Notes under the pieces: model-generated
Told to the model about the DNA's origin: nothing
Database searches by the model: none
The model's input: only the letters and a program-made list of their open reading frames with translations
Program-made: the position numbers and the translations under genes
Virus record (IMG/VR): IMGVR_UViG_2713896773_000021
Origin: a virus
Taxonomy: Duplodnaviria > Heunggongvirae > Uroviricota > Caudoviricetes
Strand: one strand, 5' to 3'
Length of the DNA stretch: 40,489 bases
Part shown: positions 8,652 through 31,433 of the stretch, one piece after another
Numbering within the stretch: position 1 is the stretch's first letter
How the letters are laid out: each line of letters begins with the position of its first letter

Positions 8652-10154
8652 TTAAGCTCCTGTTGATTCAGCCCGAGTGCGGAACTGATTGAGCAGCGCG
8701 AAAATGCGCAACTGGTTCATGAGGGTTCCCGGCCACAGCACATCGACGCGGTTCGGATTTTTGGCGTTCTGCTCGACGATGATATTTTTTGCGAATGCCT
8801 CCGCATCCTGCGCATAACCGTTCCATACCAGAGTCTGGTACTCGGCAATCTGATCGGCCTTGATAATGTTTGGCGTGACGATCGCCGCGCCAGGTGCAAA
8901 TCGGGTTCCATCCGCAGCAAGCTTCATACGGCCAAACTTGCTGGTCACCGCTGTGCGCAGGTAGCGGGTCACAAACATCAGGCTGAACAGCGTCTCCACT
9001 TCCAGATAACTGTCATCTGCATCGCCATAGCTGTTTTTCTGGTAGGTGGTGATCAGGTTTTCAATGCGCACCGTGCCATCGTCATCGACCGTAAATGTCG
9101 AAATGCCGCTGTACAGCAGATTGTTACGCTCGGTCAGCTCAAAGCGATCCTGCAGTTCTGGCGCAAGCACCCCCTGAACAGCGAGCGACTGTAGCGGGCG
9201 GCCGGGGTCATTACGCAGACTCACCGCAGCTGCGCCGGTGTAAGCTGCAGACCATGCCCAGGAAGGGGACGGCGATTTATTTACGCCCAGCAGGGTCTCA
9301 TGCTGGTTATTGCGCAGCTCACCTTTGGTACCGAGCTGGGCGTAAGTCCCGGTGGTGGTACCAAAGGAATGGCCATAAAGCTGCTTGTCCCATGCCCAGC
9401 GACCGCCAGTGTCTGACAGGAACTCCTTCATCACATTCAACGAGGTTGTATCGTCGTAAGGGTTGATGATGAAATCGAATGTCCGATCCTGCAGGTTTGC
9501 CAGCTCGCCGGTAATATCCGGAGCCCCGACTCCGTTAGACATAGCAGTAATCGTCAGTTCCAGGCCTGCAGGTGTGGACTCGCCTCCAGGTAAGCCGAGG
9601 AAGTTCAGGCGAATGTCGATCCCATTACCCGTAGCACCAAGATTCTTCGCGGTCAGGGTTACGGTATCCGTAGTCGCACTGGCGGTTACAGGTAGCGTGG
9701 TTTTTGCGTTAATCGCCGCGGCCAGAGAGGTGGCGATCGCTGCCACCGTATCTGTTGCTACAACGGTCAACTGAATGCGCTCACCAGCAATATAAAGGGA
9801 GATCACTCCGGTTGCCGTCGGTGCGCTGCTCACTCTAATGGTGCCGGTTGCAGCCACCATGGAATCGGAGTCTTCCTCCAGCGGCAGGATCCAGACTTCG
9901 GCTGCGGTATCATTTTTCTGATACGCCGCCATCATGGCCTGCAGAATTCCCCCTTTTCCTGTCAGCTCACCGACGGTATCCGAAGAGGAAACTCGCTGCG
10001 GAATACCAGGGAGGGTTGAGCCGGTACTGAGCATCCCACCGATAAGCAGGGTGCGCTGCGTGGCAGTGGCGTTATTCGCCATTGAGTTATCAAACTCAAC
10101 GAAGAAAAGCCCTACCCGCAGGTTATCGGGAACACGAGCGAAAGGTACGGTCAT
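8652..10154 (-). CDS. Contractile tail sheath protein (Mu gpL-like)
   Basis: 500-aa ORF with GGGAGAA RBS; size and position (before tube) match myovirus sheath. Confidence 0.75.
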   Translation of the reverse strand: MTVPFARVPDNLRVGLFFVEFDNSMANNATATQRTLLIGGMLSTGSTLPGIPQRVSSSDTVGELTGKGGILQAMMAAYQKNDTAAEVWILPLEEDSDSMVAATGTIRVSSAPTATGVISLYIAGERIQLTVVATDTVAAIATSLAAAINAKTTLPVTASATTDTVTLTAKNLGATGNGIDIRLNFLGLPGGESTPAGLELTITAMSNGVGAPDITGELANLQDRTFDFIINPYDDTTSLNVMKEFLSDTGGRWAWDKQLYGHSFGTTTGTYAQLGTKGELRNNQHETLLGVNKSPSPSWAWSAAYTGAAAVSLRNDPGRPLQSLAVQGVLAPELQDRFELTERNNLLYSGISTFTVDDDGTVRIENLITTYQKNSYGDADDSYLEVETLFSLMFVTRYLRTAVTSKFGRMKLAADGTRFAPGAAIVTPNIIKADQIAEYQTLVWNGYAQDAEAFAKNIIVEQNAKNPNRVDVLWPGTLMNQLRIFALLNQFRTRAESTGA

Positions 10155-11639: not shown

Positions 11640-12689
11640 TCAGACCACCGTTGCGCAGAGGGATGCATTTACCCGGCTCGGAATAACCAGCGGGGAGGAT
11701 TGCATCAGGATAAGACGCTGGGCTGGATCTTCTTTCACCCAGGATTTTGGCGCATAAGCCAGCGGACCGTAGTTGAAAGCCGGGTCCAGGATAACGCCAA
11801 ATGCGCGGGTACCCATCAGATCGGCACCACTCATAATGACAGCGCCATCGGGGATCATAGGCTTCTCGACGTTGTCCAGCGGGTCAATAAACCAGTCGTT
11901 ATATAACCAGAGGTCAAAGTTACCCCAGCGCCCTTTATAAATTGCGCCCTTCATTACCTGTGGGCCGGCGTTAATCTGGTTACCAAACGGGCTCAGCGCC
12001 GGGAATGTAATGGCGTTATCCTTGATGGTGGTATCCAGTCGGAATGCACGCCATGACTTATTCGTAAAGACCAGATCCGTGGCGACAGAGCCGGACTCTT
12101 TCAGGAAAGTAGTCTGCCAGATTTCAATGTCATCTGATGGCTGGGTATTGGTAGCGCCAGCTGCAACGGTCAGTGGCCATTTATCCGAGCCGCTAAGAGT
12201 GATGGTCAGATCCGAAGCACGCCCGAAATCCACCACCTGAGTTTCATAGCCCTCCCCGGCGACGGTTACGGTCCCGGACACCAGCGCACTCGCCGCCATC
12301 CATTCCAGACGACGGTTGATCATGTCAATCTGGTCAGTCATTTCAAACTGAAGGTTCAGCATTTCGCGCTCGGCAGCGGTATATTCCCCGCCAATACGCT
12401 CACCAATCTGGCGGCGGATAGGTTTGCGCAGGTCCGGCGCGCGCTTATCTTTGATGTATGCCGGTTTGAAGGTATTGGTCTGGTATTTACGGGATTCGAC
12501 CAGCTTACCTTCCACCAGCGGGGAGACGAACGGCGCCATACGACGCAGGCCGACATCAACATCAATCGCCACTTCTTCAGTCTCGTAAGTCACGACATTC
12601 GGGAAGAAGCGATCGAGCAGCCAGTTCTGACTGGTTTTCAGGTTAGGAACAACCTGCACCAGCACGCTGGTATCAAAAATATTTTCCAT
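11640..12689 (-). CDS. Major capsid protein (lambda gpE-like)
   Basis: Start at ATG 12689 (MENIFDTSVLVQVVPNLKTSQNWLLDRFFP...); follows decoration gene as in lambda. Confidence 0.8.
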   Translation of the reverse strand: MENIFDTSVLVQVVPNLKTSQNWLLDRFFPNVVTYETEEVAIDVDVGLRRMAPFVSPLVEGKLVESRKYQTNTFKPAYIKDKRAPDLRKPIRRQIGERIGGEYTAAEREMLNLQFEMTDQIDMINRRLEWMAASALVSGTVTVAGEGYETQVVDFGRASDLTITLSGSDKWPLTVAAGATNTQPSDDIEIWQTTFLKESGSVATDLVFTNKSWRAFRLDTTIKDNAITFPALSPFGNQINAGPQVMKGAIYKGRWGNFDLWLYNDWFIDPLDNVEKPMIPDGAVIMSGADLMGTRAFGVILDPAFNYGPLAYAPKSWVKEDPAQRLILMQSSPLVIPSRVNASLCATVV

Positions 12690-12786
12690 ATTCAGTCTCT
12701 TGATAGTGCCAGCCGCAGCTGGCAAAAAATTTAAACGAGCCAGCCCCTGCCGGTTAAAGCATTCGTCAGGAGAGCCGTGGGGGAAA

Positions 12787-13191
12787 TCAGGAGGTGGTTA
12801 CAGGTGCCTGGTCACTGTCTTTCAGGAAGATAGCCAGCGGTCGGAGCGCTTTTTTCAGGTCAGCGGTCGTCCAGGAGTTATCAAAAATAATTCGGTGCTG
12901 GTTGAATTCCCCCATCAGATACAGGCCGCCGTTCTGATCGGAAGACGATGCATCAACATCATCAACCAGAATAGCAACGGGTAACTGACTGCCATCTTCA
13001 GCCGTTTTCACACATTGCGTGTATTTCCCGCTGGCAGCCACCAGGCCCAGGACAGTACCACGCTTAAAGGCACCGCCCGTAATGATCCCGGTGTCAGTCA
13101 CCAGCTGGAGCGTGCCAGCGACAAGCTGATCCGGAACAAACAGCGCGCTCTTCATGCCAGGCGCAAACGCATTCTGACCAAACTGATCCAT
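12787..13191 (-). CDS. Head decoration protein (lambda gpD-like)
   Basis: 134-aa ORF between scaffold and capsid genes. Confidence 0.6.
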   Translation of the reverse strand: MDQFGQNAFAPGMKSALFVPDQLVAGTLQLVTDTGIITGGAFKRGTVLGLVAASGKYTQCVKTAEDGSQLPVAILVDDVDASSSDQNGGLYLMGEFNQHRIIFDNSWTTADLKKALRPLAIFLKDSDQAPVTTS

Positions 13192-13781
13192 TATTTCTCT
13201 CCTCTTGTGGAGTTGTAGAGGCCGGTCATTTTACTTACCAGCGCAGACTTTCCGGTCTCTTTCTGTCCGCTATCCGGATTAAGCCGGACCTGGTGGCTTT
13301 CCTGCATACGCTGATCGAGAGAGCGTTTACGGGATGGCTGAGATGCGGCTGCGGCCGGAGCCGAAGAGGCCAGGACATTAATTGCTGCCGCAGAACTCAT
13401 CCCGGTATTGAAAGCCAGTGACGCGGCCAGTGAAGGATTCGCAGCTGCATGCTTACTGCCGAAAATACGGGCGCAGCGTTTACGCTCAGCAGCGCGTGCA
13501 TTTTTTACCGCCTTACTCTCTTTGCGATCGTCGTCGCCGTCGTCTTCAGAATCATCATCTTCTGACGCATCCGGATCATCGCCGTCATCTTCAGCATCAT
13601 CGTCGCGTTCGTCTTCTTCCGCGTCGTCGTCGCGCTCATCATCATCGGCATCATCTTCGCGCTCGTCCTCTTCCGCGCGACGGGCTTTCGCTTTTTTGGC
13701 TTTTTTATCCTCTTCTTCCTCAGAAGCGGAAGGGCCAAGACCAATGAGGTGAGCAAAACTAAACGTCTTTTTCTTTGCCAT
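13191..13781 (-). CDS. Scaffolding-like protein with long Asp/Glu-rich tract
   Basis: Start at ATG 13781 (MAKKKTFSFAHLIGLGP...) with AGGAG RBS; acidic repeats EEDEREDDADDDERDDDAEEDERDDDAEDDGDD. Confidence 0.5.
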   Translation of the reverse strand: MAKKKTFSFAHLIGLGPSASEEEEDKKAKKAKARRAEEDEREDDADDDERDDDAEEDERDDDAEDDGDDPDASEDDDSEDDGDDDRKESKAVKNARAAERKRCARIFGSKHAAANPSLAASLAFNTGMSSAAAINVLASSAPAAAASQPSRKRSLDQRMQESHQVRLNPDSGQKETGKSALVSKMTGLYNSTRGEK

Positions 13782-13782
13782 T

Positions 13783-14649
13783 TCAGGCTCCTGTTTTTTC
13801 AAGTAAGTTTTTGAACGCAGCGTCAGGAGGACACACCTCATCAGCCAGTCCAATTTCAACGCCATCAGCAGCCATAAAACAGGCGGCCTGGGTACTTTTT
13901 ATAACCTTTGCGCTAATCCCCCGGTTTCTGGCAACAGTGTTCACAAACAATTCGCCCATGGTGTTAATGTCCTGCTGGATGGCGGCCAGCGCTTCATCTG
14001 ACAACTCTCTCAGCGGCGAACCTTCAGCCTTGCGGGATCCATAGGTGATGATCGTAACTTTAAGACCGTCATCTTTAATCCGCTGCGTCCAGTCAAGGTG
14101 CATGGTGATCACACCCACAGAACCCACTCCGCCGGTGCGCGGAACAGAAATCCGGTCCGCTGCACTGGCAATGGCATACGCAGCGGAATAAGCGCTTTCC
14201 GTCAGAATGGCATGGATAGGCTTTTTCCCCCGGGAGCCGTAAATGACATCAACCAGATCGAAGCATCCAGCGACCTCGCCGCCGGGTGAGTCGATATCCA
14301 GGCAAATGCCCGAAATGTCGGGATCTTCCATCGCAGTAAGAAACGCCTGACGAATGCCGTCATACCCTGTCATTCCACTGTACGGACGCAGACTGCCCAG
14401 TTTTTGCACCAGCGTTCCGCATATCGGGATGACGGCGACACCCAGCACATTGTCATAACCCGGATCACTACGGGATTCACGTCCCCGGTTATCGTCATAT
14501 CCGTACCAGTCATCCTCCATGGCAAGAGAAGATTCGATTTTACTGATACCAAATCGGTCCATTACGGATGCCATGATGACTTCGGCTTTACTCGGGTGCA
14601 GCGCCAGCGGGGTGTTAAATAATCGCTGGGCCAGATGGGGTAGATTCAC
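13783..14649 (-). CDS. Prohead maturation protease (S49 / ClpP-fold, lambda gpC-like)
   Basis: 288-aa ORF ATGA-coupled to portal stop. Confidence 0.7.
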   Translation of the reverse strand: MNLPHLAQRLFNTPLALHPSKAEVIMASVMDRFGISKIESSLAMEDDWYGYDDNRGRESRSDPGYDNVLGVAVIPICGTLVQKLGSLRPYSGMTGYDGIRQAFLTAMEDPDISGICLDIDSPGGEVAGCFDLVDVIYGSRGKKPIHAILTESAYSAAYAIASAADRISVPRTGGVGSVGVITMHLDWTQRIKDDGLKVTIITYGSRKAEGSPLRELSDEALAAIQQDINTMGELFVNTVARNRGISAKVIKSTQAACFMAADGVEIGLADEVCPPDAAFKNLLEKTGA

Positions 14650-16283
14650 TTTTCCTCCGGATCGGTAATGGTCTGGCTCGCAAACTGGTCAGCCTGTGCC
14701 CAGCTCGGAAGCGGTAATCCGCGTTTAAGACATGACTCAATTTCTCTCTGGCGCTGATCAAGCACTTCTTCCCAGTCTTCACCGACGTTTTCACCCACCT
14801 CAATCTCGAGGGTGGAAAGTCCGGCATCCAGACCAAGAATGGCGCCTTTTTTCTCTGCAACCGGATCCACCCAGCCGCGCCCTGGCCCCATCCAGCGCGC
14901 GCGAGAATACGCGGCTCTGGCGTCAACAAAATCAGGTGCGCCTGCGGGCAGGGGTAAATCCTCATTGTCGTGAACTTCTTCAACAAAGGCGGTGAGAATG
15001 GGCTGAGCGAAGCCGGTAGAAAAATCGTCCCGGCGGCGAGTCAGTGTTTTCCATGCCTCCAGCAACGAGGAGCGTGCAGAACTGTAGTTAACGTCAGACC
15101 AGTCCTGGGTGACCTGCTGTGGGGACAACCCTGTTCCTGAAGAAAAATTACGGAGAACAGCAGATTCGAAGACTTCAAAATTGCTGTAGGGCCGCGCCGC
15201 GTTAACCGTCGTGATTTTCTCACCAGGATAAAGAATGGGCATTCGGGCACCATTCTGAAGTGTCAGACGCCGATCGTTATGGAACTCAACACGCCCGTCC
15301 TGATAAGTGCCTAACTCCGACTCGTCATAGGTCTCGCCCAGGGCAGACTGAACCATCGCAGGGTCATAGGGTGACTCAATGTAAGCGGCAAATATGGCAT
15401 TAAGAATTGCTGCCTCAAGCTCACTCTGGTCATACTTCACCAGCATTTTCAGACGCTGAATAACCGGAGTCAGGATGCCGTTACCGCGGTGCTGCGCGCC
15501 ACGCTCATGATCAAAATCGTGAACCACATGCGGGCGGCCCCAGTCAGTTTCACGCGGGATACGCTGCCACGTCATGGTTTTAGCCCCGCTCCACCAGTCA
15601 CCGATATGGGCCTCCCTGATGTGGTAAGCAACCGGCGCACCGTCCGCATCAATTTCAACGCCACCACGGACATTTGGCATATCGAAATTCTGCTGAGGAT
15701 TACTGAGGCGGTCAGGATCGACAATCTGTACCGTGGTGGCGTAACGCCCTCTTCCGGGACCAAGCCTGTCAGTTCTGTACTGGAGAATGGCCAGAGCATC
15801 CCCGTCAATAAGCTTATGACGAAATCCCAGGCGTAACATCTGCGACACGGTGAGTTTTCGTTCAACATCACAATACCGGCCAGGATCGTTACTCCAGGTC
15901 CGCCAGTGCCCGTCCAGTGCTTTTCCGTACTCTTCCGCCCAGGACGCATCAAACGCCTTGTTTCCGGTGATCATTCTGAGAACACGGTAATCGGGTTTCA
16001 TGATGGGGCGGAAGTTGGCACCAACCGCATTATCCAGCAGACGTGTGACCGCACCGTTTGCCCAGCCGTCATTACGGACCAGATCGCGTGCGCGGGACAC
16101 GATGCGATCCCGGTAAATGTTAATTTCATTGTCCGGGGACCACAGCGCGGGTTGCCAGTTCGCCAGTTGATCGCTGAAAGAGTCAGCTGCGTCATAAGGT
16201 ACGCGGCTCCCCCCCACCAGCATAGAGGGACGCTGCTGTCGCAACGGCTGCCCATCAGAGCCCAGTATCTGTACTTTATTCAT
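14646..16283 (-). CDS. Portal protein (lambda gpB family)
   Basis: 545-aa ORF downstream of terminase and W-like gene. Confidence 0.8.
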   Translation of the reverse strand: MNKVQILGSDGQPLRQQRPSMLVGGSRVPYDAADSFSDQLANWQPALWSPDNEINIYRDRIVSRARDLVRNDGWANGAVTRLLDNAVGANFRPIMKPDYRVLRMITGNKAFDASWAEEYGKALDGHWRTWSNDPGRYCDVERKLTVSQMLRLGFRHKLIDGDALAILQYRTDRLGPGRGRYATTVQIVDPDRLSNPQQNFDMPNVRGGVEIDADGAPVAYHIREAHIGDWWSGAKTMTWQRIPRETDWGRPHVVHDFDHERGAQHRGNGILTPVIQRLKMLVKYDQSELEAAILNAIFAAYIESPYDPAMVQSALGETYDESELGTYQDGRVEFHNDRRLTLQNGARMPILYPGEKITTVNAARPYSNFEVFESAVLRNFSSGTGLSPQQVTQDWSDVNYSSARSSLLEAWKTLTRRRDDFSTGFAQPILTAFVEEVHDNEDLPLPAGAPDFVDARAAYSRARWMGPGRGWVDPVAEKKGAILGLDAGLSTLEIEVGENVGEDWEEVLDQRQREIESCLKRGLPLPSWAQADQFASQTITDPEEK

Positions 16284-21947: not shown

Positions 21948-23000
21948 TTATTCCCCTGTTAACGCCCTTATTTCCTCCACCGTCTGGCTAAACCTGTCCT
22001 CCTCGAGTTCAACGCCGATAGCCTGGCGGCCAAGTTCCAGCGCGATTTTCACGGTCGAACCGGACCCCATAAAGAAATCAGCCACCACATCACTAGGCTT
22101 ACTGCTGGCGTTGATGATCTGCCGCAACATGTCAGCGGGTTTTTCGCATGGGTGTTTACCTGGGTAAAACTGAACGGGTTTATGTGTCCAGACGTCGGTA
22201 TAAGGAACGGATACGGAAACAGAGAAATGCCGCCGAAGCGATTTGTACTCTTCGAGCAGCTCTGAATACTTGCGATTTAACGAATGCCACATAGCCACCA
22301 GCTGGTGGTGTGGTGTTGCCAGTTCGCCGTTCTGGTGCTTTTCGATGGCTACCTGCGTGAAAAGGGACTGAAGATTCCGGTAGTCTGATTCATTCGGTAA
22401 TTGCCACTGGCTACCGCTGAACCAGTGAGACACCATGTTCTTCTTTCCAGTCGCATCGGCTATTTGTTTTGAGGTTATGCCAAGCGCTTCACGTGCATCC
22501 CGGAAATAAGAAATTAGGGGAGTCATTACATGCTGCTTCAGCTCGCTTCCCTTCTCCGCGTAACCGTCGCTCTTTGGTTTATACGGCCCCTGGTAATGCT
22601 CAGCGAAGAGGATGCGCTCTGTTGCAGGGAAGTAAGAGCGCAGACTCTCTTTATTACAGCCATTCCAGCGGCCCGACGGTTTAGCCCAGATGATGTGGTT
22701 CAGGACGTTGAACCGCTCACGCATCATGATCTCAATGTCTGCCGCCAGGCGGTGACCGGAGAAAAGATAAAGACTGCCAGCAGGTTTAAGCACTCGCCAG
22801 AATTGTGCGAGGCACATATCAAGCCAGCGAAGATAATCCTCATCCCCTTTCCACTGATTGTCCCAGCCGTTGGGTTTCACTTTGAAGTACGGCGGATCCG
22901 TGACTATCAGGTCAATGGAGTTATCAGGGAGAGTGGCGATGTATTGCAGGCTATCAGCGTTGACTAACTCAACACTGTTTATATTTACAGTATTTTTCAT
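21948..23000 (-). CDS. DNA methyltransferase, beta-class (DPPY motif before FxGxG); N6-adenine or N4-cytosine specific
   Basis: ...IDLIVTDPPYFK... near N-terminus and ...DVVADFFMGSGSTVKIAL... near C-terminus. Confidence 0.75.
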   Translation of the reverse strand: MKNTVNINSVELVNADSLQYIATLPDNSIDLIVTDPPYFKVKPNGWDNQWKGDEDYLRWLDMCLAQFWRVLKPAGSLYLFSGHRLAADIEIMMRERFNVLNHIIWAKPSGRWNGCNKESLRSYFPATERILFAEHYQGPYKPKSDGYAEKGSELKQHVMTPLISYFRDAREALGITSKQIADATGKKNMVSHWFSGSQWQLPNESDYRNLQSLFTQVAIEKHQNGELATPHHQLVAMWHSLNRKYSELLEEYKSLRRHFSVSVSVPYTDVWTHKPVQFYPGKHPCEKPADMLRQIINASSKPSDVVADFFMGSGSTVKIALELGRQAIGVELEEDRFSQTVEEIRALTGE

Positions 23001-23167
23001 AGATCAATAAGCGTAACTCTGATAGGCTCTCTTTGCTTTTGCGCTAAAGCAATGGGCCTTGGTTAGCTTGTGACCTGAAAGCATGAGCTGATGGCTGGTG
23101 GGTGCTCCAACATCCACCAGCCGCCCATTTTCACAGCAAAATACCTCCGAAATGGAGGTGCGAAGGC

Positions 23168-23192
23168 ATAAAAAAACCCCGCTTAAGCGAGG
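23168..23192 (-). terminator. Terminator-like hairpin (ccucgc/gcgggg with G-U pair, then U7) downstream of HEPN gene
   Basis: Plus strand ataaaaaaaccccgcttaagcgagg, 18 nt after stop of 23210..23614. Confidence 0.4.
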
Positions 23193-23209
23193 TTATTTCG
23201 AATAGATAA

Positions 23210-23614
23210 TCAAGCAGCAGGTTCGGATGGATAAACCTGCTCATACATCTGCTGAAGGGTGTCAATAGCTTTGTTAGCCATTATCAATATAGCTTCCGCA
23301 TCAGCCTTACTTAAAGTTCTATCAAGCTCGTAATCTGCCCATTTACGTCGGGTATGCAAATGTCTCAGCATTGTTCCCATAGAAATGAGTTTCATTTTTT
23401 CAAACGGCTCATTTCCTTTTAACCATGCATCATTTGTAAGATAGTCGCGAACAGCTTGGTGTGACGACTTGTTTGGGCATTTCTCAAGCTTATCAAGCGT
23501 TTCATGATAAACTCCATAATACGCTCGACCAATGGCGTTTCTGTAACCGATTTCATCGTTGTGAGAAATGCATTTACCAGCAAAAACAATAAAATCTTTC
23601 CCCGATACGCTCAT
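23210..23614 (-). CDS. HEPN-domain protein (predicted RNase-type effector/toxin)
   Basis: 134 aa; ...NAIGRAYYGVYHETLDKL... and ...RRKWADYE... match the classic HEPN helix-1 (RAYYamfH) and R..ADY motifs; start ATG overlaps stop of upstream gene (TGATGA). Confidence 0.6.
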   Translation of the reverse strand: MSVSGKDFIVFAGKCISHNDEIGYRNAIGRAYYGVYHETLDKLEKCPNKSSHQAVRDYLTNDAWLKGNEPFEKMKLISMGTMLRHLHTRRKWADYELDRTLSKADAEAILIMANKAIDTLQQMYEQVYPSEPAA

Positions 23615-24369
23615 CAGTAAATCCCTCTTTTTTCATCGCTTTGAAACCAGGATGTAAAAGGGCTGTTCCGATAACTATCATCTGAGAGCAAAACCAACAG
23701 TTCCATGTTCATTTCAGCTAAAACCTGCGGATCAGCAGTTTGGGCTCTAACGATGAATGCATTGTCATCATCTCCACCAAGATAATAGCTAACACTTGAA
23801 CAGTTAATACCGCGCTTGTTCGCAATCTCTTCAGCTTGATCGCAAAGGGCTTCTAGTTCTCGAGAAGAAAGACGGGTAGCGTTTTTGAAATCAACAATCT
23901 GTTCAGCCATATAATTTCCCTGATTGATTATATCCTCTCGCTCTTGGCCATCATAAAGAGCAGCCATTTTGAGGGAGAACTTTTTAACCAACTTGTCGTT
24001 GCCGATACAAAATGCAGCGTTTCTTGCTACAAGCCTCAGTTCATGTGAAGGGAAAAGCTCAACTATTCTAAACAACTCAACGCGATGCTCATAGTTATGA
24101 GCCGAACGAGAAAGATACGCCAAGTAGTTTTGTGCGATCGTTGGACTCCCAGAGCTCATCGCGTCTTTGAATAAACGTACTGCATCAGAGTGACGCCCGA
24201 GAGTTCCATTAAGCCATGCATACGCATGTGCGCGCTCACTTATTGGAAGTTTAGCAATGTCGCGCTCAATTTCCGCAATAGTGTCTGTATCCGGGACTTC
24301 TCCCTTCTGGAAGTAATCGAGGATTGTTGCAAGCAGTTCTTGTTCTTTTGACTCAGGCTGTCCTGACAT
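23614..24369 (-). CDS. Uncharacterised helical protein, partner of HEPN protein
   Basis: First ATG at 24369 (MSGQPESKEQ...), ~251 aa; no catalytic motif recognised; 1-nt overlap with HEPN gene implies co-translation. Confidence 0.5.
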   Translation of the reverse strand: MSGQPESKEQELLATILDYFQKGEVPDTDTIAEIERDIAKLPISERAHAYAWLNGTLGRHSDAVRLFKDAMSSGSPTIAQNYLAYLSRSAHNYEHRVELFRIVELFPSHELRLVARNAAFCIGNDKLVKKFSLKMAALYDGQEREDIINQGNYMAEQIVDFKNATRLSSRELEALCDQAEEIANKRGINCSSVSYYLGGDDDNAFIVRAQTADPQVLAEMNMELLVLLSDDSYRNSPFTSWFQSDEKRGIY

Positions 24370-24520
24370 AATTTTCCCGAAGAAAACCAAATTCTGTATG
24401 TTTTCAATAGCTTCACTGGATAGGTTTTTATATTGCTGTCATCAGTATTGAAGCTTTTACGGGATTGTACAGGACCATCAGCGTTCTACTTGTGCATAAG
24501 AATTTAATAAACCTACAGAC

Positions 24521-24594
24521 TTATCCACAGAAAAAAGAGTTATCAACAAAAAAAGTTATTCACAACTTAACTAATAGCAAAATATTGTTGATAA
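24521..24594. promoter_or_regulatory. Cluster of DnaA-box-like 9-mers in AT-rich leader of the cargo operon
   Basis: TTATCCACA 24521-24529 (perfect consensus), TTATCAACA 24540-24548, TTATTCACA 24556-24564, inverted TGTTGATAA 24586-24594. Confidence 0.3.
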
Positions 24595-24716
24595 GCTGTG
24601 CGTAATTATCATATCCATCAAACTTACGCACATTAGAGCCTTGTGTTGCCTATCCATCGTTTTTTCCTATCAAAACGAAACGACATGCTTTTCTGCGATT
24701 AAAAAAGTATTCCGCA

Positions 24717-24746
24717 AAATTAAAAAACCCGCTCACTGGCGGGTTT
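24717..24746 (-). terminator. tR'-like rho-independent terminator just downstream of Q-like gene
   Basis: Minus-strand RNA aaacccgccagugagcggguuuuuuaauuuu (stem cccgc/gcggg). Confidence 0.55.
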
Positions 24747-24778
24747 ATATACTGTTGGCAACATATCAAATTAGCTTC

Positions 24779-24808
24779 AAATATCGCTTATTTTGTTGCA
24801 TTTTGCAA
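24779..24808 (-). promoter_or_regulatory. Candidate late promoter (PR'-like): -35 TTGCAA, 17-18 nt spacer, -10 GATATT/ATATTT
   Basis: Located between Q-like stop (24839) and the terminator; sigma70-like hexamers read on the minus strand. Confidence 0.25.
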
Positions 24809-24838
24809 GCCCAATTGAGGGAGTTAGTGAAAGTTATC

Positions 24839-25531
24839 TCACATTTCCGCCACTTTGAGTTCTTGGTACTCTTCGTACCGTGACAAAATTTCGCTTAGTG
24901 CCTGGCTGTCCATTTCTGCAAACGACGCTTTGAAAGCCGCCCAGTGGCCTGAATACACTCTGAGCCAGGTGGAACGCTCAACGCTGACCATGCGCGCCAG
25001 AGCTGCTCCAGCATACTCCTGATAGGTATCGTTATTACGCGAGGCAGCAACTTCTTGCGCCGCCAGCCAGACAAGCCCTATCAGTTTTTTAGTGACACGG
25101 CCCTGTATTTTTTTGCCGCTATGCTGACGCTGAAATTGTTCCCACACGTACTGGCACATTAACGTCTGGTACCGGAAGGTCAGGTCATACCCATAGCAAT
25201 ACCGCACCCATGCCTGCAAATGCTCCCCCAGACCATTCACCGACCGACGCCATGCTGAACAAGCGAACTCCGTATCCTTAATAGGCGGTAAAGGTCGGCG
25301 ACGGCTCCTTGTCTCAAGAACATAAAGCGGAGTGGCCAGAGTTTTTACAACCTTCGATCCACAACCTTCCCCACCTTCCATGACGATTTCAGGATGGTGC
25401 CGGGGGTATTTGTTCTTATCTGCTGGTGGATGCTCACTGAACGCCTGCAGCTGTCCTTTTGTCGAACCTGATAAATCCGCCAGCGCTCGGCGCAGTTCAA
25501 TCCGCGTATATTCCAGTTCTTGTAAATTCAT
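24839..25531 (-). CDS. Putative late-gene antiterminator (Q-like by position; family not recognised)
   Basis: First ATG at 25531 (MNLQELEYTRIELRR...); immediately upstream of a promoter/terminator pair and the late operon; no zinc-finger motif. Confidence 0.4.
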   Translation of the reverse strand: MNLQELEYTRIELRRALADLSGSTKGQLQAFSEHPPADKNKYPRHHPEIVMEGGEGCGSKVVKTLATPLYVLETRSRRRPLPPIKDTEFACSAWRRSVNGLGEHLQAWVRYCYGYDLTFRYQTLMCQYVWEQFQRQHSGKKIQGRVTKKLIGLVWLAAQEVAASRNNDTYQEYAGAALARMVSVERSTWLRVYSGHWAAFKASFAEMDSQALSEILSRYEEYQELKVAEM

Positions 25532-25552
25532 TATGCTCAGCGCTCCATACAA

Positions 25553-26614
25553 TTACGCTTTTGTTATTACGCCGATCGCCAGCGCTCGATTCATAAATCG
25601 GAATAGCAGCTCCAGCTGGGTACCGTGTTTTTTCTCGAACGCTGCAACATCAGCATGTAATTTGTCGTGACACTCTCTGCACAGAGGGATCACGAACAAA
25701 TCGTGGGCTTTAGTGGCGGTACCGCCCATGCCGTGACCAATGACATGGTGTGGATCATCCGCTGGCCGCCGGCAACCTTCACAGGGCTGGGTTTTAGCCC
25801 ACCGGGTATAGTCCTCATTCACCCACCTGCGGTGTTTTGGGCGCAACATGAATGATTCAGGGGATTCAGGATCCGCATGCAGAGCCAGAACCTGTGGCTG
25901 GTCATAGGCCACTTCCTGATTTGTTCCATGCTTTAAATGCGCAGCCGTGACCGCAGGGGTGACCTTCTTCTGCAAAATGTTTTTTGTCGGTGGCATCGGC
26001 ACAATGTCACTTTCGCGATATACGGATAAAAACGGCTCATCCGGTAAGCGAAGCGCATGCTGGGCCATCCTTTCCGTGATTGCATCAGCAATGCCTGAGT
26101 AAACGGCCCACCAGCACAATTCACCGAGGGATAGTTCACGCTCGTTGTTGTAGCCAAGCGAAGACAGGATAGAACTGATCAGCCAGTTAATGAGATTACG
26201 CCGGGCCAGTTCTGCCAGCGCCGCGGTGGTTTGCTCGCGCAGCTGGTTATCGCAATGCCAACAGAGCAACATTGATCCAGGGGGATGTCGCATCGTTACC
26301 AGCTCATGATGGTGATAATCAGTGTGCGGGTACTGGCATTCCTTCACGTTACGCTCTAGCCAGGATTCCAACCCGGACAAACCGCCTGCTGCACGGATAA
26401 CTCTCTCGTCGGTGAAGAATTCCTCGAGGGACTTATCTTCTGCCAGCGGCTGCCGGGCATCAGGGACGAGCCCCGACGGAAGCCCAGCCATGCTTTTTGG
26501 CTGAGGCTCCACCAGCACACGCCCCTGTTGAAACAAAGACATCAGTTCGCTACCCGGCTTTAACAGCACAAGCCCAAGGCGCGGAACAGTCTCGGCTGTA
26601 AACAGTCCTCTCAC
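25553..26614 (-). CDS. DUF968-like protein with C-terminal Cys/His cluster
   Basis: C-terminus ...CEGCRRPADDPHHVIGHGMGGTATKAHDLFVIPLCRECHDKLH...; GTG start overlapping upstream stop. Confidence 0.5.
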   Translation of the reverse strand: MRGLFTAETVPRLGLVLLKPGSELMSLFQQGRVLVEPQPKSMAGLPSGLVPDARQPLAEDKSLEEFFTDERVIRAAGGLSGLESWLERNVKECQYPHTDYHHHELVTMRHPPGSMLLCWHCDNQLREQTTAALAELARRNLINWLISSILSSLGYNNERELSLGELCWWAVYSGIADAITERMAQHALRLPDEPFLSVYRESDIVPMPPTKNILQKKVTPAVTAAHLKHGTNQEVAYDQPQVLALHADPESPESFMLRPKHRRWVNEDYTRWAKTQPCEGCRRPADDPHHVIGHGMGGTATKAHDLFVIPLCRECHDKLHADVAAFEKKHGTQLELLFRFMNRALAIGVITKA

Positions 26615-27317: not shown

Positions 27318-29255
27318 TCAGGCGGCTGCACCCGCCTTTTGATTTGCACATAATTCAGGAAGATTTGCTTCTACCAGCGCACGAGCGAACGGCGGCGGTA
27401 CTGCGTTACCACAGCGCGCTACCTGCTTGTCTTTGGCGTAACGATTGCCGCGATAGTCCTGATCGATAACGTAGCCGTCAGGGAAGCCCTGCGCCTTATA
27501 AAGCTCATGCGGTTGCAGCATGCGCATTCCGATATCGACGATCTGGTACTTAACCCCCTCGATCGTCACCAGCCATTCATCCTCGCTATCACCGCAGTAG
27601 GTTTCGAGGAATGTCCGGACCTCGCCAACGTGCTGGCCACCAGCGGTAATCGTCGGCATAGGTGTATCCATGGTCTGACCGTCGCGGCAGGTTCCGCGCA
27701 GCTTCACCAGGTGCGACGCAACTACCGCGTGGTGATCAACAGTAGTGACTGAGTGGGCAGGCTCATCCATACCAACACCCGGCCCCGTGTAATTCCCACC
27801 ATAGTGCTTCGCCAGGAACGCGCTCACCGTTGCAAACTTATTACCACCAGCAGTGACCGTGCCGAGCGGGTTATTCAGTTGAAGAACACGCGGTTCTTGC
27901 CCTGGGCGTTCGCCGTACCCCATCTGGATCAGTGTTGGAGTTACCAGCTGCGACTTACCGCCACCACCTGCAGTAATCGTCGCACTCGGTTCGTCAGCCC
28001 TGTGCCCAACACTGGCTCCAAACTGGCGGGCGATGACCGGCGCAACCACGCACGCGCGGGACTGCTTGAGGATTGTATGAGCGGGTTTATCCAGCGGGCG
28101 CGGCTTTGCCTGGTACTCACTGCCGCCATTGCCAGCCAGGAACGGTGTCAGGGCGGCCTCAACTACGCCAAGCGCATGCCCATTCCCGCCCGGGCGCGCC
28201 GACGTACCAGCGGTGACAGTTGGTACCGGCTCGGTCACTGGCTGCCCGGTGGCCCCGGTGCGGAATTTAGTAAGATGCGGTACCGCCAGTGCGTAGCCAT
28301 GCTTTTTAGTGATGGTCTGCAATGGCTCTAACAACGATTGCCCGCGGAAACAGTCATAACCTCCTTTCGTCGTGGTGTGGTTACACTTCACGATGAAAGG
28401 TGATGCGCTTTCGATAACAAAGCGCTGGATGCCGCGCGCGATACGTTTGAGCGTATTTTCCGCCAGCGGCTTTTTGCGGTCGAAGATGGACCGGGCCGGG
28501 ATATTCCAGTCAATGCACTCCGCCGCGGTACGCCATGGCGCCAGCTTGCCGCTTTGTACTTCCAGTGATTTTGGATCCCCATGAGTCGCTTCAGGCCAAT
28601 GAATCTTGCGGCCGTCACAGCGCATGACCATGAAGAAACGCTTTCTGATCGTCGGCGCGCCGTAGTCACATGCGCGCAGCTCCCGATAATCAACCTCATA
28701 ACCAAGCCCGGCGATCAGCTGTTGCGCCTGCTGGCCGTGCGGCTCAATGGCAAGGAATTCACAAACCTCAGCCAGCGCAGGGTGATTCGCCGCGATCCCC
28801 GTCGACAGCATGCCGACAAATGCCTCGAATGTTTCGCCAGCACGCTCAGGATCCGGGCGTAATTCTTCATCCAGCAGCGGGCCCCATGTCTTAAACTCTT
28901 CGACGTTCTCCAGCATCATGACGCGGGGACGTACTGCCAGCGCCCAGCGCAGGACAATCCACGCCAGCCCGCGAATCTCTTTCTTAACCGGCTTAGCGCC
29001 CTTCGCCTTGGAAAAGTGGCGGCAGTCAGGGCTAAACCAGGCCAGACCGACAGGTTTACCGCTGGTGGCTGCGCTTGGGTCAACGTCAAACACCGACTCG
29101 CAATAATGCAGCGTGTCAGGGTGATTCGTCTTATGCATCGCAATAGCGTTTTCGTCGTGGTTGATAGCGATATCCACGCTACGCCCGATCGCCAGTTCAA
29201 TGCCGGTACTCGCGCCGCCGCCACCAGCAAAGTTATCAACGATAATTTCACGCAT
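27318..29255 (-). CDS. DNA (cytosine-5)-methyltransferase-like protein with long C-terminal region of repeated modules
   Basis: Start at ATG 29255 (MREIIVDNFAGGGGAS...); FAGGGG (motif I-like), FSPDCRHFS (PC-motif variant), MLENVEEF (ENV motif); four P-x-T-[IV]-T-A-G-G modules in C-terminal half. Confidence 0.55.
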   Translation of the reverse strand: MREIIVDNFAGGGGASTGIELAIGRSVDIAINHDENAIAMHKTNHPDTLHYCESVFDVDPSAATSGKPVGLAWFSPDCRHFSKAKGAKPVKKEIRGLAWIVLRWALAVRPRVMMLENVEEFKTWGPLLDEELRPDPERAGETFEAFVGMLSTGIAANHPALAEVCEFLAIEPHGQQAQQLIAGLGYEVDYRELRACDYGAPTIRKRFFMVMRCDGRKIHWPEATHGDPKSLEVQSGKLAPWRTAAECIDWNIPARSIFDRKKPLAENTLKRIARGIQRFVIESASPFIVKCNHTTTKGGYDCFRGQSLLEPLQTITKKHGYALAVPHLTKFRTGATGQPVTEPVPTVTAGTSARPGGNGHALGVVEAALTPFLAGNGGSEYQAKPRPLDKPAHTILKQSRACVVAPVIARQFGASVGHRADEPSATITAGGGGKSQLVTPTLIQMGYGERPGQEPRVLQLNNPLGTVTAGGNKFATVSAFLAKHYGGNYTGPGVGMDEPAHSVTTVDHHAVVASHLVKLRGTCRDGQTMDTPMPTITAGGQHVGEVRTFLETYCGDSEDEWLVTIEGVKYQIVDIGMRMLQPHELYKAQGFPDGYVIDQDYRGNRYAKDKQVARCGNAVPPPFARALVEANLPELCANQKAGAAA

Positions 29256-30582
29256 TGACGGCCCCCTGCATGCTGTTGAAGAGACCACCAGCGGTCGTGA
29301 TAATTTCACTCGTCGGCATACGTTCGAGCCACAGCTGGTTGATATTGGCTTTCAGCTTGTTCTGCTGCGAAACAGGTAGAGCGTCAGCCCCTTCAATCTG
29401 GTTAAACACCAGTCCAACCTCAAGAGGCCAAACGCGCGATTCGTTTAACGCCTTGTCCTTTGATTCCTGCGTCTCACGGACATGGGCGCGGATCCCCCGA
29501 ATATTTGACCATTTGGCTTTATCCAGGCTTTCCATGGTCGCGATGAATTCACTGTGGTTAATGCCGTATTCTTTCGCAGACTCAACGGCAACCGTGCGTA
29601 ACCGCTCTGACATGTCTTGTTTCACGTCATCGCTATCAAAGGGCAATGTTTCCAGCCATGCATTAACACCCACCAGGATGCTCTCGCTGATCAGCTTTTT
29701 CGCTCTGTCGATCGTCAGCGGTGAAACATTGGTAAATTCAGGGTTTTCCAGAGAGTCGGCAGCCCAGGTATGACCAAACTTTGACTCGCTGAAGGTGTAC
29801 TCGTCTTTCTCGCCGAACGCCGCGACAACACAGGCCCAAGCCTCTACACCGCTGGTTTCCAGAATGGCTTTTTGGGTTAATGGCAGTTCTGCCTCTGATT
29901 TCTTCGGCACTACCTCAGCGTCCAGCTCTGGCGCCGCATCAGTTTGCGTTCTTCCCACGGCAAATTGGGCCAGCGACATCGCAGCACGGCCTTTGGCCTC
30001 CAGGTCGGTGCGGTTGATGTAACTGAAACGCTCACCCCGCCATGTTTTGTCGAAGACCACGATAGCGCCAGCAAAAAATGCGCTGGTGGGCTGCTGCTTT
30101 TCGTCTTTCGGCACGAACCATGTAGGAAGATCGAAACCAATTCGGCCACGGATGAATGTGACGTGATCTGCCTCTTCCGGCCACCACGTTTCACTCGTCG
30201 CAGACTTAATGAGAAAAACGTACCGACCACCCTTTTCTCGCATGGCCATAGCGTGGTTAATGATGTGGGTCATTCCGGTAACGGCCTGCTTGTCGTGGTA
30301 CTGAGAGCGGCTGTAAGGCGGGTTGCCAAACCCGGCACCACCGAGTTCTGCCAGCCGCTCTGACCAATCCTGCGTCAGGGCATTATCTTCAGCCGTGTAC
30401 CATGCTGGGCACTTCGCGTTGCTGTCGTCGGCAAAAAGGTCCAACACCAGAGGGCCGAACATCGCATTGATCCCCCAAAACAACAGATCCGGAGTGCGCC
30501 ATTGATCACCGACCTCTTTCAACTCGTGTGCTGGTTTTGAACGGAGTTCAGCCAGTGCACGGCAGTATTTATTTTCCATCAT
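29248..30582 (-). CDS. Phage Dam-like N6-adenine methyltransferase domain fused to ~260-aa uncharacterised C-terminal region
   Basis: QWRTPDLLFWGINAMFGPLVLDLFADDSNAKCPAWYT...GFGNPPYS (NPPY motif). Confidence 0.7.
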   Translation of the reverse strand: MMENKYCRALAELRSKPAHELKEVGDQWRTPDLLFWGINAMFGPLVLDLFADDSNAKCPAWYTAEDNALTQDWSERLAELGGAGFGNPPYSRSQYHDKQAVTGMTHIINHAMAMREKGGRYVFLIKSATSETWWPEEADHVTFIRGRIGFDLPTWFVPKDEKQQPTSAFFAGAIVVFDKTWRGERFSYINRTDLEAKGRAAMSLAQFAVGRTQTDAAPELDAEVVPKKSEAELPLTQKAILETSGVEAWACVVAAFGEKDEYTFSESKFGHTWAADSLENPEFTNVSPLTIDRAKKLISESILVGVNAWLETLPFDSDDVKQDMSERLRTVAVESAKEYGINHSEFIATMESLDKAKWSNIRGIRAHVRETQESKDKALNESRVWPLEVGLVFNQIEGADALPVSQQNKLKANINQLWLERMPTSEIITTAGGLFNSMQGAVNA

Positions 30583-31433
30583 CCTCTGAACCCCTCTGGA
30601 ATCTTGCTATCAACCGGACCGAACTTCATCGGGTCATGTTTCTTTTCACCCCAGCTGTCACGCGGTGGCCGCCCCTTCTTGTCCCAGCGGATCCCGCTTT
30701 GCAGATAACCTTCAAATTTTTTCGGACCGAAGAGCGTTTCAGGACGCATGTACTGGTACTGCACGTCATTGCCGTTCCAGTGCTCATGCTTAAGGTCGAT
30801 CACCAGCTGTAAGTCGCTAACGGTGTAACCTTCACGCAGACGAGCACGGATGTTTTCCAGAGAAGTTTTTGATTTTTGGTATCGTGAGCCACTAACCAGG
30901 TTCAGATGATTCAGAACCAGGATGGCGTTATCGGTGATCATCACTTCAGGGTCTGGTTGCGGCGCAACCGGACAAGAAGGTTTTTTAACTGATGGATCAG
31001 TAGTTGTATTTACTGACGGATCCCCCCCAGATTCTGACGGGTGAAAACCGCCTTTTTCATCGTTTTTTGATGCCTCAGATTTTGACGCGTCTGTTTTTGA
31101 GGCATCAGATTTTGATGCGTCAGAATCTGACAGGTGAGAAAAGGCAGCAGCCTGCAATTTCGCAACATTGAGCTGGTAAACGTTCGATGCATTTCGGTTG
31201 CCTTTACGGCGCTGCTGGCGGGTTAACCAACCATCTTTTTCCAGCTGAGATATGGCTGTACGAACCGTGCTCTCACCAGCACCAATCTGGCGCGCGATGG
31301 TAGCGATGGAAGGCCAGCTAACCCCTTCATCACTGCTGAAGTCTGCCAGACGCGCCATGATGGCAACGCTGGATAACTTCATGCCTGACGAAGCGCATGC
31401 ATCCCATACGTAACCGGTTAATTTAGTGCTCAT
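30579..31433 (-). CDS. Replication initiation protein (O-like; N-terminal wHTH, Ser/Asp/Lys repeat linker, conserved phage C-terminal domain)
   Basis: N-terminus ...WPSIATIARQIGAGESTVRTAISQLEKDGWL...; internal SDASKSDASKTDASKSEASK encoded by tandem DNA repeats. Confidence 0.6.
   Translation of the reverse strand: MSTKLTGYVWDACASSGMKLSSVAIMARLADFSSDEGVSWPSIATIARQIGAGESTVRTAISQLEKDGWLTRQQRRKGNRNASNVYQLNVAKLQAAAFSHLSDSDASKSDASKTDASKSEASKNDEKGGFHPSESGGDPSVNTTTDPSVKKPSCPVAPQPDPEVMITDNAILVLNHLNLVSGSRYQKSKTSLENIRARLREGYTVSDLQLVIDLKHEHWNGNDVQYQYMRPETLFGPKKFEGYLQSGIRWDKKGRPPRDSWGEKKHDPMKFGPVDSKIPEGFRG
31062..31121. repeat. Four tandem imperfect 15-bp repeats inside the O-like gene (candidate origin iterons)
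   Basis: gttttttgatgcctc / agattttgacgcgtc / tgtttttgaggcatc / agattttgatgcgtc, flanked by near-palindromes cagattctgac (31029) and gtcagaatctgac (31120). Confidence 0.4.

Follow-up and report, generated by a model that had tools for sequence, protein, structure and literature searches.

A two-gene cassette of 1.2 kb, carried on the minus strand of a lambdoid Escherichia coli prophage, a viral genome of the class Caudoviricetes (IMG/VR record IMGVR_UViG_2713896773_000021; the whole stretch of 40,489 nucleotides (nt) analyzed is called the window here), encodes a protein of 251 amino acids (aa), termed the partner, followed by a 134-aa protein with a HEPN fold. We lean toward the view that this pair is a mobile, partner-regulated HEPN RNase conflict module, acting in abortive infection or as a toxin-antitoxin system and found mainly in temperate phages of Enterobacterales. 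The 134-aa protein belongs to the AF0298-like HEPN-T clade, and an alternative histidine is predicted to take the place of the canonical one. The partner combines a tetratricopeptide repeat (TPR)-like solenoid with a small alpha/beta domain; the two genes are conserved as a co-diverging pair under purifying selection, and they recur in accessory slots of otherwise different prophages.

HEPN nucleases recur as effectors in bacterial immunity and in toxin-antitoxin systems. For the AF0298-like branch, which is devoid of the canonical histidine, catalysis was demonstrated only very recently, in type IX retrons. The cassette would place this branch under a completely different, non-enzymatic regulator. 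If a role in lysogen defense is true, the cassette adds a system that current defense finders miss, and offers a simple model of a TPR sensor gating a HEPN nuclease; control by DnaA, if true, would be an unusual way of regulating a module of this kind. Further HEPN cassettes in prophage accessory slots are what a specialist would expect, and the one described here is widespread and cleanly bounded.

An AF0298-like HEPN-T protein with an alternative histidine

The sequence-only reading of this DNA had assigned the 134-aa protein (23210..23614, minus strand, ATG start) to HEPN from two strings, GRAYYGVYH and RRKWADYE, both of which are present in the sequence as given, together with the coordinates, protein lengths and gene overlap that it reported. 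At the level of the fold this identity is borne out. The protein has the all-alpha, up-and-down helical bundle of the HEPN domain; the profile of its family matches PDB chains 9xbd (E 1.5e-12) and 9xbc (E 1.6e-11), each named 'HEPN domain-containing protein', as well as AF0298 (2hsb, E 4.4e-8), and PF05168 is matched by 8 of the 24 close relatives and by 28 of the 63 distant ones, with a best E of 1.3e-7. Among PADLOC models, HEPN_IX, which represents the type IX retron effector, matches 37 of the 63 relatives (best E 5.5e-6), and the PDC-M05B models, the HEPN half of an MNT-HEPN candidate system, each match between 1 and 7 of them (best E 8e-5). The window protein taken by itself has no match to HEPN_IX at E<=1 and no family in an NCBIfam scan, and searches of the PDB with either cassette protein as a single sequence returned only noise.

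The Rx4-6H motif of HEPN proteins is placed at the end of helix 3 (Anantharaman et al. 2013, PMC3710099). In AF0298-like HEPN-T proteins the canonical histidine is typically absent, and a second histidine, contributed by an insert between helices 2 and 3, has been proposed to complete an alternative active site (PMC3710099). It is to this clade that the 134-aa protein belongs, its alternative histidine H52 being paired with the motif arginine R90. RRKWADYE, offered earlier as a HEPN signature, does occupy the canonical motif position (R90-KWA-D94-Y95, at the end of helix 3), but the histidine is missing: R90 is invariant, and no histidine stands 4-6 residues downstream of it. The R-x6-H within GRAYYGVYH, offered there as the other classic signature, is not the catalytic motif of HEPN proteins, as this string sits in helix 2 and its H37 aligns with a tyrosine of 9xbd; the RAYY within it is instead a clade signature, and R30, Y32, Y33 and H37 make up a conserved helix-2 motif.

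Conservation singles out the same few positions. R90, D94 and Y95 end the helix that spans residues 73-95, and H52 opens the insert helix (52-62). Across 63 relatives of 26-48% identity the first three are invariant and H52 is at least 90% conserved; in 15 diverse members both H52 and R90 are invariant, and across diverse relatives R30, Y32, Y33, H37, R90, D94 and Y95 are invariant or nearly so. H52 and R90 also align with the His and Arg of both 9xbd and 2hsb, and D94 and Y95 with their counterparts in these chains. H52 and R90, with D94 and Y95 beside the latter, are predicted to serve in catalysis or ligand binding, and this pattern matches both the description of AF0298-like proteins (PMC3710099) and the catalytic His/Arg of the type IX retron HEPN.

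We found no paper describing the 9xbd and 9xbc structures, which are the nearest relatives with a solved structure. The two chains differ in length (125 and 131 aa, respectively) and, within the aligned region shown, by a change of Tyr to Phe in the R-x3-D-Y motif, which suggests that the depositors attach functional importance to the counterpart of Y95, for instance as a residue that is modified.

Architecture of the partner protein

The partner gene (23614..24369, minus strand) runs from an ATG at 24369 to a stop at 23614; the longest open reading frame (ORF) extends from a TTG, over 23614-24390, but homologs begin at the ATG, which gives the length of 251 aa. A TPR-like helical solenoid takes up residues ~8-136 and is followed by a long helix (141-165) and a small alpha-beta-beta-alpha-beta domain (169-244). 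The protein matches no Pfam, NCBIfam or PADLOC family and belongs to PHROG 17809, annotated as 'unknown function', while some members of its family match TPR weakly and relatives are named 'tetratricopeptide repeat protein' in some sources. Down to ~20% identity the only invariant residues are N81, Y82, Y85, R101, G123, F161, A183 and D213; very few polar residues are invariant, and no catalytic signature or enzyme family was found among the homologs.

The sequence-only reading had noted that the partner is devoid of nucleotidyltransferase features, and that the locus is for this reason not a canonical HEPN/MNT pair. Our results agree: the partner contains no nucleotidyltransferase GS/DxD-like motif and has no nucleotidyltransferase match in Pfam or PADLOC, its fold being that of a TPR protein with a small alpha/beta domain. 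At no examined locus is an MNT (GS...DxD) partner adjacent to the HEPN gene; the TPR partner is found instead. The suggestion that the module is novel also stands, in that neither protein itself matches a curated family or a known defense model, the matches to PF05168 and to PADLOC HEPN_IX and PDC-M05B being weak ones among relatives of the 134-aa protein, and no paper describing the gene pair was found.

Conservation and co-divergence of the pair

One base is common to the partner stop codon and the HEPN start codon (ACTGATGAG, i.e. TGATG), and this arrangement is widely maintained. In a first collection, 53 of 54 loci have a partner homolog directly upstream of the HEPN gene, as do 81 of 81 loci of a second, viral scan; the loci that conserve the pair number more than 130. 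The genes mostly overlap, by 1-17 nt; they are separated by ~14 nt in three Gilliamella loci, and abut or lie 2 nt apart in two IMG/VR loci. The coupling of the HEPN gene to its upstream neighbor, postulated earlier from the window, is thus found here in the shared base and elsewhere in the overlaps and the constancy of the pairing. As distant a relative as that from a hydrothermal vent (~29% identity) has a 254-aa gene upstream that overlaps by 4 nt and is collinear with the partner profile (hhalign E 2.3e-5). The single exception in the first collection, a Thiotrichaceae contig (L020), has a 266-aa ORF overlapping the HEPN start, for which homology to the partner is not demonstrable (hhalign E 0.52); it was not accepted as a further pair.

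An exhaustive search yielded 264 representative HEPN relatives at E<=1e-10. Among the 150 of these that were listed there are no fusions; almost all are 115-155 aa long, with a few fragments. Both genes are under purifying selection, with ratios of nonsynonymous to synonymous substitution (Ka/Ks) of 0.02-0.04 for the HEPN gene and 0.08-0.09 for the partner gene, and the partner evolves faster than the HEPN protein. Since both genes recur together and have low Ka/Ks, the pair is not a chance arrangement of ORFs. Between loci, the pairwise identity of one protein tracks that of the other (r 0.93, Mantel p 0.001).

In one of two assemblies of Enterobacter sp. SA187, an extra A in a homopolymer (L012, at ~5530, relative to L013) splits the partner gene and leaves the HEPN gene intact. 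The extra base is either an artifact of sequencing or the mark of a natural partner-null allele, and the allele, if real, would bear on whether the HEPN protein is toxic alone.

Distribution and genomic sites

In 12 of 5426 complete Escherichia coli genomes the cassette is present at 99.7% identity or more, annotated as two hypothetical proteins, and HEPN relatives are encoded by 304 IMG/VR stretches. Such cassettes are common among the prophages of E. coli, Klebsiella, Citrobacter, Enterobacter and Morganella, and they occupy three accessory slots of prophages as well as some chromosomal sites. A slot between Q and the lysis genes is used in E. coli, Morganella and Enterobacter ludwigii; a slot adjacent to int, at the prophage end, in Hafnia, Klebsiella, Citrobacter, Lonsdalea and Pseudocitrobacter; and a slot beyond the tail-fiber or umuDC end in Erwinia, Enterobacter sp. 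SA187 and metagenomes. In the end-of-prophage slots (int-adjacent and beyond the tail fibers) the pair is convergent with the phage genes. Gilliamella has a chromosomal site, where the pair lies between frr and a transporter (MFS) gene with no phage genes nearby.

In the window, the cassette has the marks of an accessory element. GC content falls to 0.34-0.45 over 23200-24800, which comprises the cassette and its upstream spacer, from 0.50-0.58 on both flanks. An intrinsic terminator-like hairpin with a T-run (23175..23194, minus strand; 8-bp stem with five GC pairs, AACCTCGCTTAAGCGGGGTT then TTTTTAT) stands 16 nt past the HEPN stop codon. The slot is a known one, and in E. coli the same cassette is found behind at least three different Q genes and before different lysis genes. 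The sequence-only reading had placed the cassette in an accessory ('moron') slot of lambdoid phages, with Q on one side and the lysis genes on the other. The low GC content, the cassette's own terminator and its site between Q/tR' and the late genes sustain the first part of this description, and upstream there are indeed a Q gene (PF06323) and an intrinsic terminator. On the downstream side it requires amendment: the cassette is not directly beside the holin and lysozyme genes, because a 350-aa methyltransferase gene (21948-23000) intervenes.

A second E. coli prophage (L002, NZ_CP032237.1) carries the cassette behind an unrelated Q, with a tRNA-Thr gene at 9699-9773 between Q and the cassette, a position that corresponds to ~24800 of the window; no tRNA gene is found in the whole window.

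Relation to characterized systems

No match to a validated system was found among known anti-phage systems (PADLOC-DB v2 and the DefensePredictor DS systems), and the accessions of the pair proteins are absent from the DefensePredictor supplements. The characterized systems that invite comparison each share only some properties with the cassette.

HEPN-MNT pairs (AF0298-like HEPN-T, PF05168/UPF0332; PDC-M05; type VII) share its HEPN clade but differ in the second protein, which here is a 251-aa partner with TPR and alpha/beta domains and no conserved catalytic residues. As the partner is not a nucleotidyltransferase, neutralization by AMPylation is not expected.

The closest characterized relative of the 134-aa protein appears to be the type IX retron effector, to which its sequence is related weakly. 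The type IX retron HEPN has been modeled on 2hsb, with the canonical histidine missing and an alternative histidine noted (Mestre et al., PMC7736814). In Retron-Kva2, H64 and R122 of the HEPN protein are required for defense and toxicity, and the protein cleaves rRNA and tRNA (July 2026 preprint, 10.64898/2026.07.14.738597). A non-enzymatic partner from an overlapping gene, together with the reverse transcriptase and multicopy single-stranded DNA (RT-msDNA), blocks the HEPN active site sterically (10.64898/2026.07.14.738597). The likeness of Retron-Kva2 (PDB 36ht) to the cassette thus lies in a 2hsb-like HEPN protein without the canonical histidine and in an overlapping gene for a non-enzymatic partner; toxicity of the HEPN protein alone and its inactivation by steric occlusion are features of the retron. 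The gene order here is reversed, with the partner first, and the Kva2 HEPN is longer (174 aa). No reverse transcriptase, msr/msd noncoding RNA or winged-helix protein is found beside the pair, whose neighbors are Q, DUF968, methyltransferase and lysis genes.

HepS of the Salmonella Gifsy-1 prophage is, like the 134-aa protein, a HEPN protein that a prophage encodes in an accessory locus of the lambdoid type. This anticodon nuclease is inactive by default and is switched on by a phage protein. It is solo and canonical; it was set aside as a close match and is regarded as an analog only at the level of the superfamily. AbiV of Lactococcus, reported to be an RNase acting on rRNA, has an alternative histidine in common with the first HEPN-T family (Anantharaman et al. 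2013). Its antitoxin is an RNA, whereas neither a repeat RNA nor an Rfam family was found at the cassette. An RNA antitoxin of the AbiV kind was accordingly rejected, the only tandem repeat (24517-24555, 19 nt x 2.1) being part of the cluster of DnaA-box-like sequences described below.

The theme of a HEPN gene beside a TPR gene is not new, as the LA2681 and AbiU2 HEPN families are already linked to TPR or Sel1 partners (Anantharaman et al. 2013, PMC3710099). The likeness is that of a HEPN and TPR/Sel1 gene neighborhood in conflict systems, to which the partner described here adds a RimP-N-like alpha/beta domain. Two further candidates were rejected: DefensePredictor DS-28 (ANEX), which combines a HEPN protein with a 252-aa protein, has the opposite gene order and no detectable similarity, and the proteins of HEP3 are unrelated to the pair.

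Proposed role and alternatives

In the mechanism that we envisage for a partner-regulated conflict module, the 134-aa HEPN protein would dimerize and act as an RNase on rRNA and/or tRNA, through a non-canonical active site composed of R90 (with D94 and Y95) and of H52 from the insert between helices 2 and 3. By analogy with its characterized relatives, this protein probably cuts RNA. The partner, presumably made from the same transcript through translational coupling, would be a non-enzymatic TPR scaffold standing in place of the MNT of canonical HEPN-T pairs, and would bind the HEPN protein and keep the nuclease inactive. It would probably serve also as the sensor, its TPR groove binding a phage- or stress-derived ligand; ligand binding, or loss of the partner, would then release or activate the nuclease. 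The outcome could be abortive infection, growth arrest and/or post-segregational killing, which would protect the lysogen population and/or stabilize the prophage. Abortive infection by a prophage-borne HEPN protein has an established precedent in HepS.

Several observations weigh against this proposal. A Pfam scan with the 134-aa protein alone gives no match at E<=1, its single PADLOC match, to PDC-M05B, is weak (E 0.012, residues 82-129), and the Retron-Kva2 HEPN chain is related to the family profile at an E of only 0.12. Because the canonical Rx4-6H histidine is absent, catalysis rests on the analogy with AF0298-like and retron-IX HEPNs. The co-divergence of the two proteins is no proof of physical interaction, as it is expected from the linkage of adjacent genes alone. 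In addition, there is no convincing sigma-70 promoter between tR' and the partner gene in the window, and expression of the cassette may here rely entirely on Q-dependent read-through and come late in the lytic cycle of the phage itself, in which case a role in lysogen defense fits less well.

A wider version of this proposal, which we regard as possible but doubtful, is that the cassette represents a previously unnamed family of HEPN systems, in which a non-enzymatic regulator and sensor made of TPR and RimP-N-like domains replaces the MNT for an AF0298-type, non-canonical His/Arg RNase. The RimP-like domain might target the nuclease to the small ribosomal subunit, and in several lineages DnaA might control transcription through boxes overlapping the promoter, which would couple an RNA-targeting immune or addiction module to the replication state of the cell.

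The pairing of the genes could also be accommodated by a plain, type II-like toxin-antitoxin addiction module, in which a labile TPR antitoxin would bind and neutralize a HEPN toxin and the two would stabilize a prophage or island without any specific sensing of phage. The gene in antitoxin position lies upstream of, and overlaps, the gene in toxin position, by 1 nt here and with overlapping stop and start codons in nearly all loci; both genes are always present and co-diverge, their sites include prophage ends beside int and non-phage chromosomal positions, and HEPN-T proteins are the toxins of HEPN/MNT pairs. However, the 251-aa TPR partner has no DNA-binding domain of the kind typical of small autoregulating antitoxins, which it does not otherwise resemble, and the recurrence of DnaA-box-like elements suggests control by a host factor rather than autoregulation by an antitoxin. 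We consider addiction as the whole explanation to be unlikely, while noting that toxin-antitoxin and abortive-infection roles are compatible with each other and not mutually exclusive.

The position of some cassettes raises the question of whether the pair serves the lytic cycle of the phage itself, either in late remodeling or degradation of host RNA or in counter-defense, with the HEPN and TPR surfaces binding a nucleotide signal or a host factor. The cassettes of the window, of Morganella and of E. ludwigii are part of the late operon, where they follow tR' and run in the same direction as Q and the lysis genes; the window shows no strong promoter of the cassette's own, and relatives are encoded by the ~304 IMG/VR stretches mentioned above. 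This role is nevertheless quite improbable, given that the int- and tail-fiber-adjacent pairs are convergent with the phage genes and have their own promoter-like site, and that the Gilliamella copies are outside recognizable prophages. Moreover, only some of otherwise similar phages carry the cassette, which swaps Q and lysis backgrounds in the manner typical of dispensable cargo.

It might also be argued that the HEPN protein is catalytically inert, being an RNA- or nucleotide-binding regulator (cf. the MtlR-type HEPN) with the TPR protein as its adaptor, and that neither killing nor arrest ensues. The histidine of Rx4-6H is missing, non-catalytic HEPN domains do exist (PMC3710099), and the SA187 assembly with a frameshifted partner beside an intact HEPN gene would be tolerable if the latter were harmless. 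Against this, E21, R25, R30, H37, H52, R90, D94 and Y95 vary little or not at all even at ~26-30% identity, which is the pattern of an active site, and the same His/Arg pair is catalytic in the related retron-IX HEPN. The SA187 frameshift, moreover, comes down to a single homopolymer base in which the two assemblies of this strain differ; it may be an artifact of sequencing and was rejected as a sign of a harmless HEPN protein. An inert protein thus seems very unlikely.

Least credible of all is a three-gene unit in E. coli, restriction-modification-like or otherwise linked to methylation, with the HEPN protein as second-line effector behind partner and methyltransferase: the methyltransferase gene does follow the pair in every E. 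coli-clade locus, at 79-100% identity and despite differing Q and lysis genes, and HEPN-T genes do cluster with restriction-modification operons (PMC3710099), but a terminator and ~210 nt separate it from the HEPN gene, the pairs of Morganella, E. ludwigii, Erwinia, Hafnia, Klebsiella, Citrobacter and Gilliamella have no adjacent methyltransferase, and the enzyme best matches a type II methyltransferase model (PADLOC, E 1.7e-145) with no restriction endonuclease recognized in the region examined.

Locus layout and transcription signals

Transcription at the locus, all on the minus strand, proceeds from a DUF968/HNH-like gene (25553-26614) through the Q antiterminator gene (24839-25552; PF06323, E 5e-41; PHROG 304), a terminator, a spacer, the partner and HEPN genes, a second terminator and the methyltransferase gene (21948-23000), to genes for holin-like, lysozyme and Rz-like proteins. 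The terminator after Q is intrinsic and tR'-like (24725..24746, minus strand; AAACCCGCCAGTGAGCGGGTTT then a T-run), separating the Q/pR' leader from the cassette, and the AT-rich spacer between it and the partner gene measures ~350 nt. Beyond the terminator that closes the cassette there is a second, weaker hairpin at 23159-23143 (minus strand).

A pR'-like sequence, TTGCAA-17-GATATT (24808-24780, minus strand), is a weak match to consensus. The putative pR' leader would be very short, with the promoter-like site ~30 nt past the Q stop codon and a strong terminator within ~35-55 nt. In an Rfam scan of 22900-25000 no family reaches its gathering score; a sub-threshold, Trp_leader-like match at 24719-24819 reflects the shape of the leader and terminator.

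Relatives in the end-of-prophage slots carry, in the promoter scan (L013, L003), GTGACA-16-TACAAT with an upstream TG, a match to consensus at 10 of 12 positions. The corresponding scan of the minus strand of the window gave no consensus match, only weak candidates and a lone TACAAT with no good -35 element; this -10-like hexamer (24464..24469, minus strand), ~95 nt upstream of the partner ATG, aligns with the -10 element of the relatives' promoter-like site.

Upstream of the partner gene, at 24491..24564, is a cluster of DnaA-box-like 9-mers, TTATGCACA, TTATCCACA and TTATTCACA, with a fourth, TTATCAACA, that has one mismatch. Three of the four perfect TTATNCACA sites in the 40.5-kb window fall within this segment, as against 1.23 expected in the window as a whole, and the proximal site abuts the expected -35 position. 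The stretch that bears the boxes accompanies the cassette whatever the type of Q. Across loci, boxes occur in the 300 nt upstream of the partner at 1.74 per kb as against 0.023 per kb, an enrichment of ~75-fold, and they are present in 7 of 31 mutually unalignable upstream clusters (binomial P ~1e-8 if base composition is uniform, and somewhat less extreme if the DNA is AT-rich). They are found upstream of the partner also in loci L054, L096, L105, L122, L123 and L132, and in the int-adjacent clade they take the form of an inverted pair, TGTGGATAA-N7-TTATCCACA. From sequence, these patterns suggest DnaA-dependent control of cassette transcription in some lineages. As other clades are without the boxes, they are a lineage-specific regulatory feature rather than a defining one.

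Neighboring methyltransferase genes

The gene at 21948-23000 (minus strand) encodes a 350-aa N6/N4 DNA methyltransferase (PF01555, E 4e-42) with a weak HTH_3 match within it. Two more such genes lie upstream of Ant, DUF968 and Q in the same prophage, as represented in L001: a frameshifted one for a DNA cytosine methyltransferase and one for a phage N-6-adenine methyltransferase. Their coordinates there are 12219-14155 and 14148-15482, which by offset correspond approximately to 27350-30600 of the window, bringing the methyltransferase genes of this prophage to a total of three.

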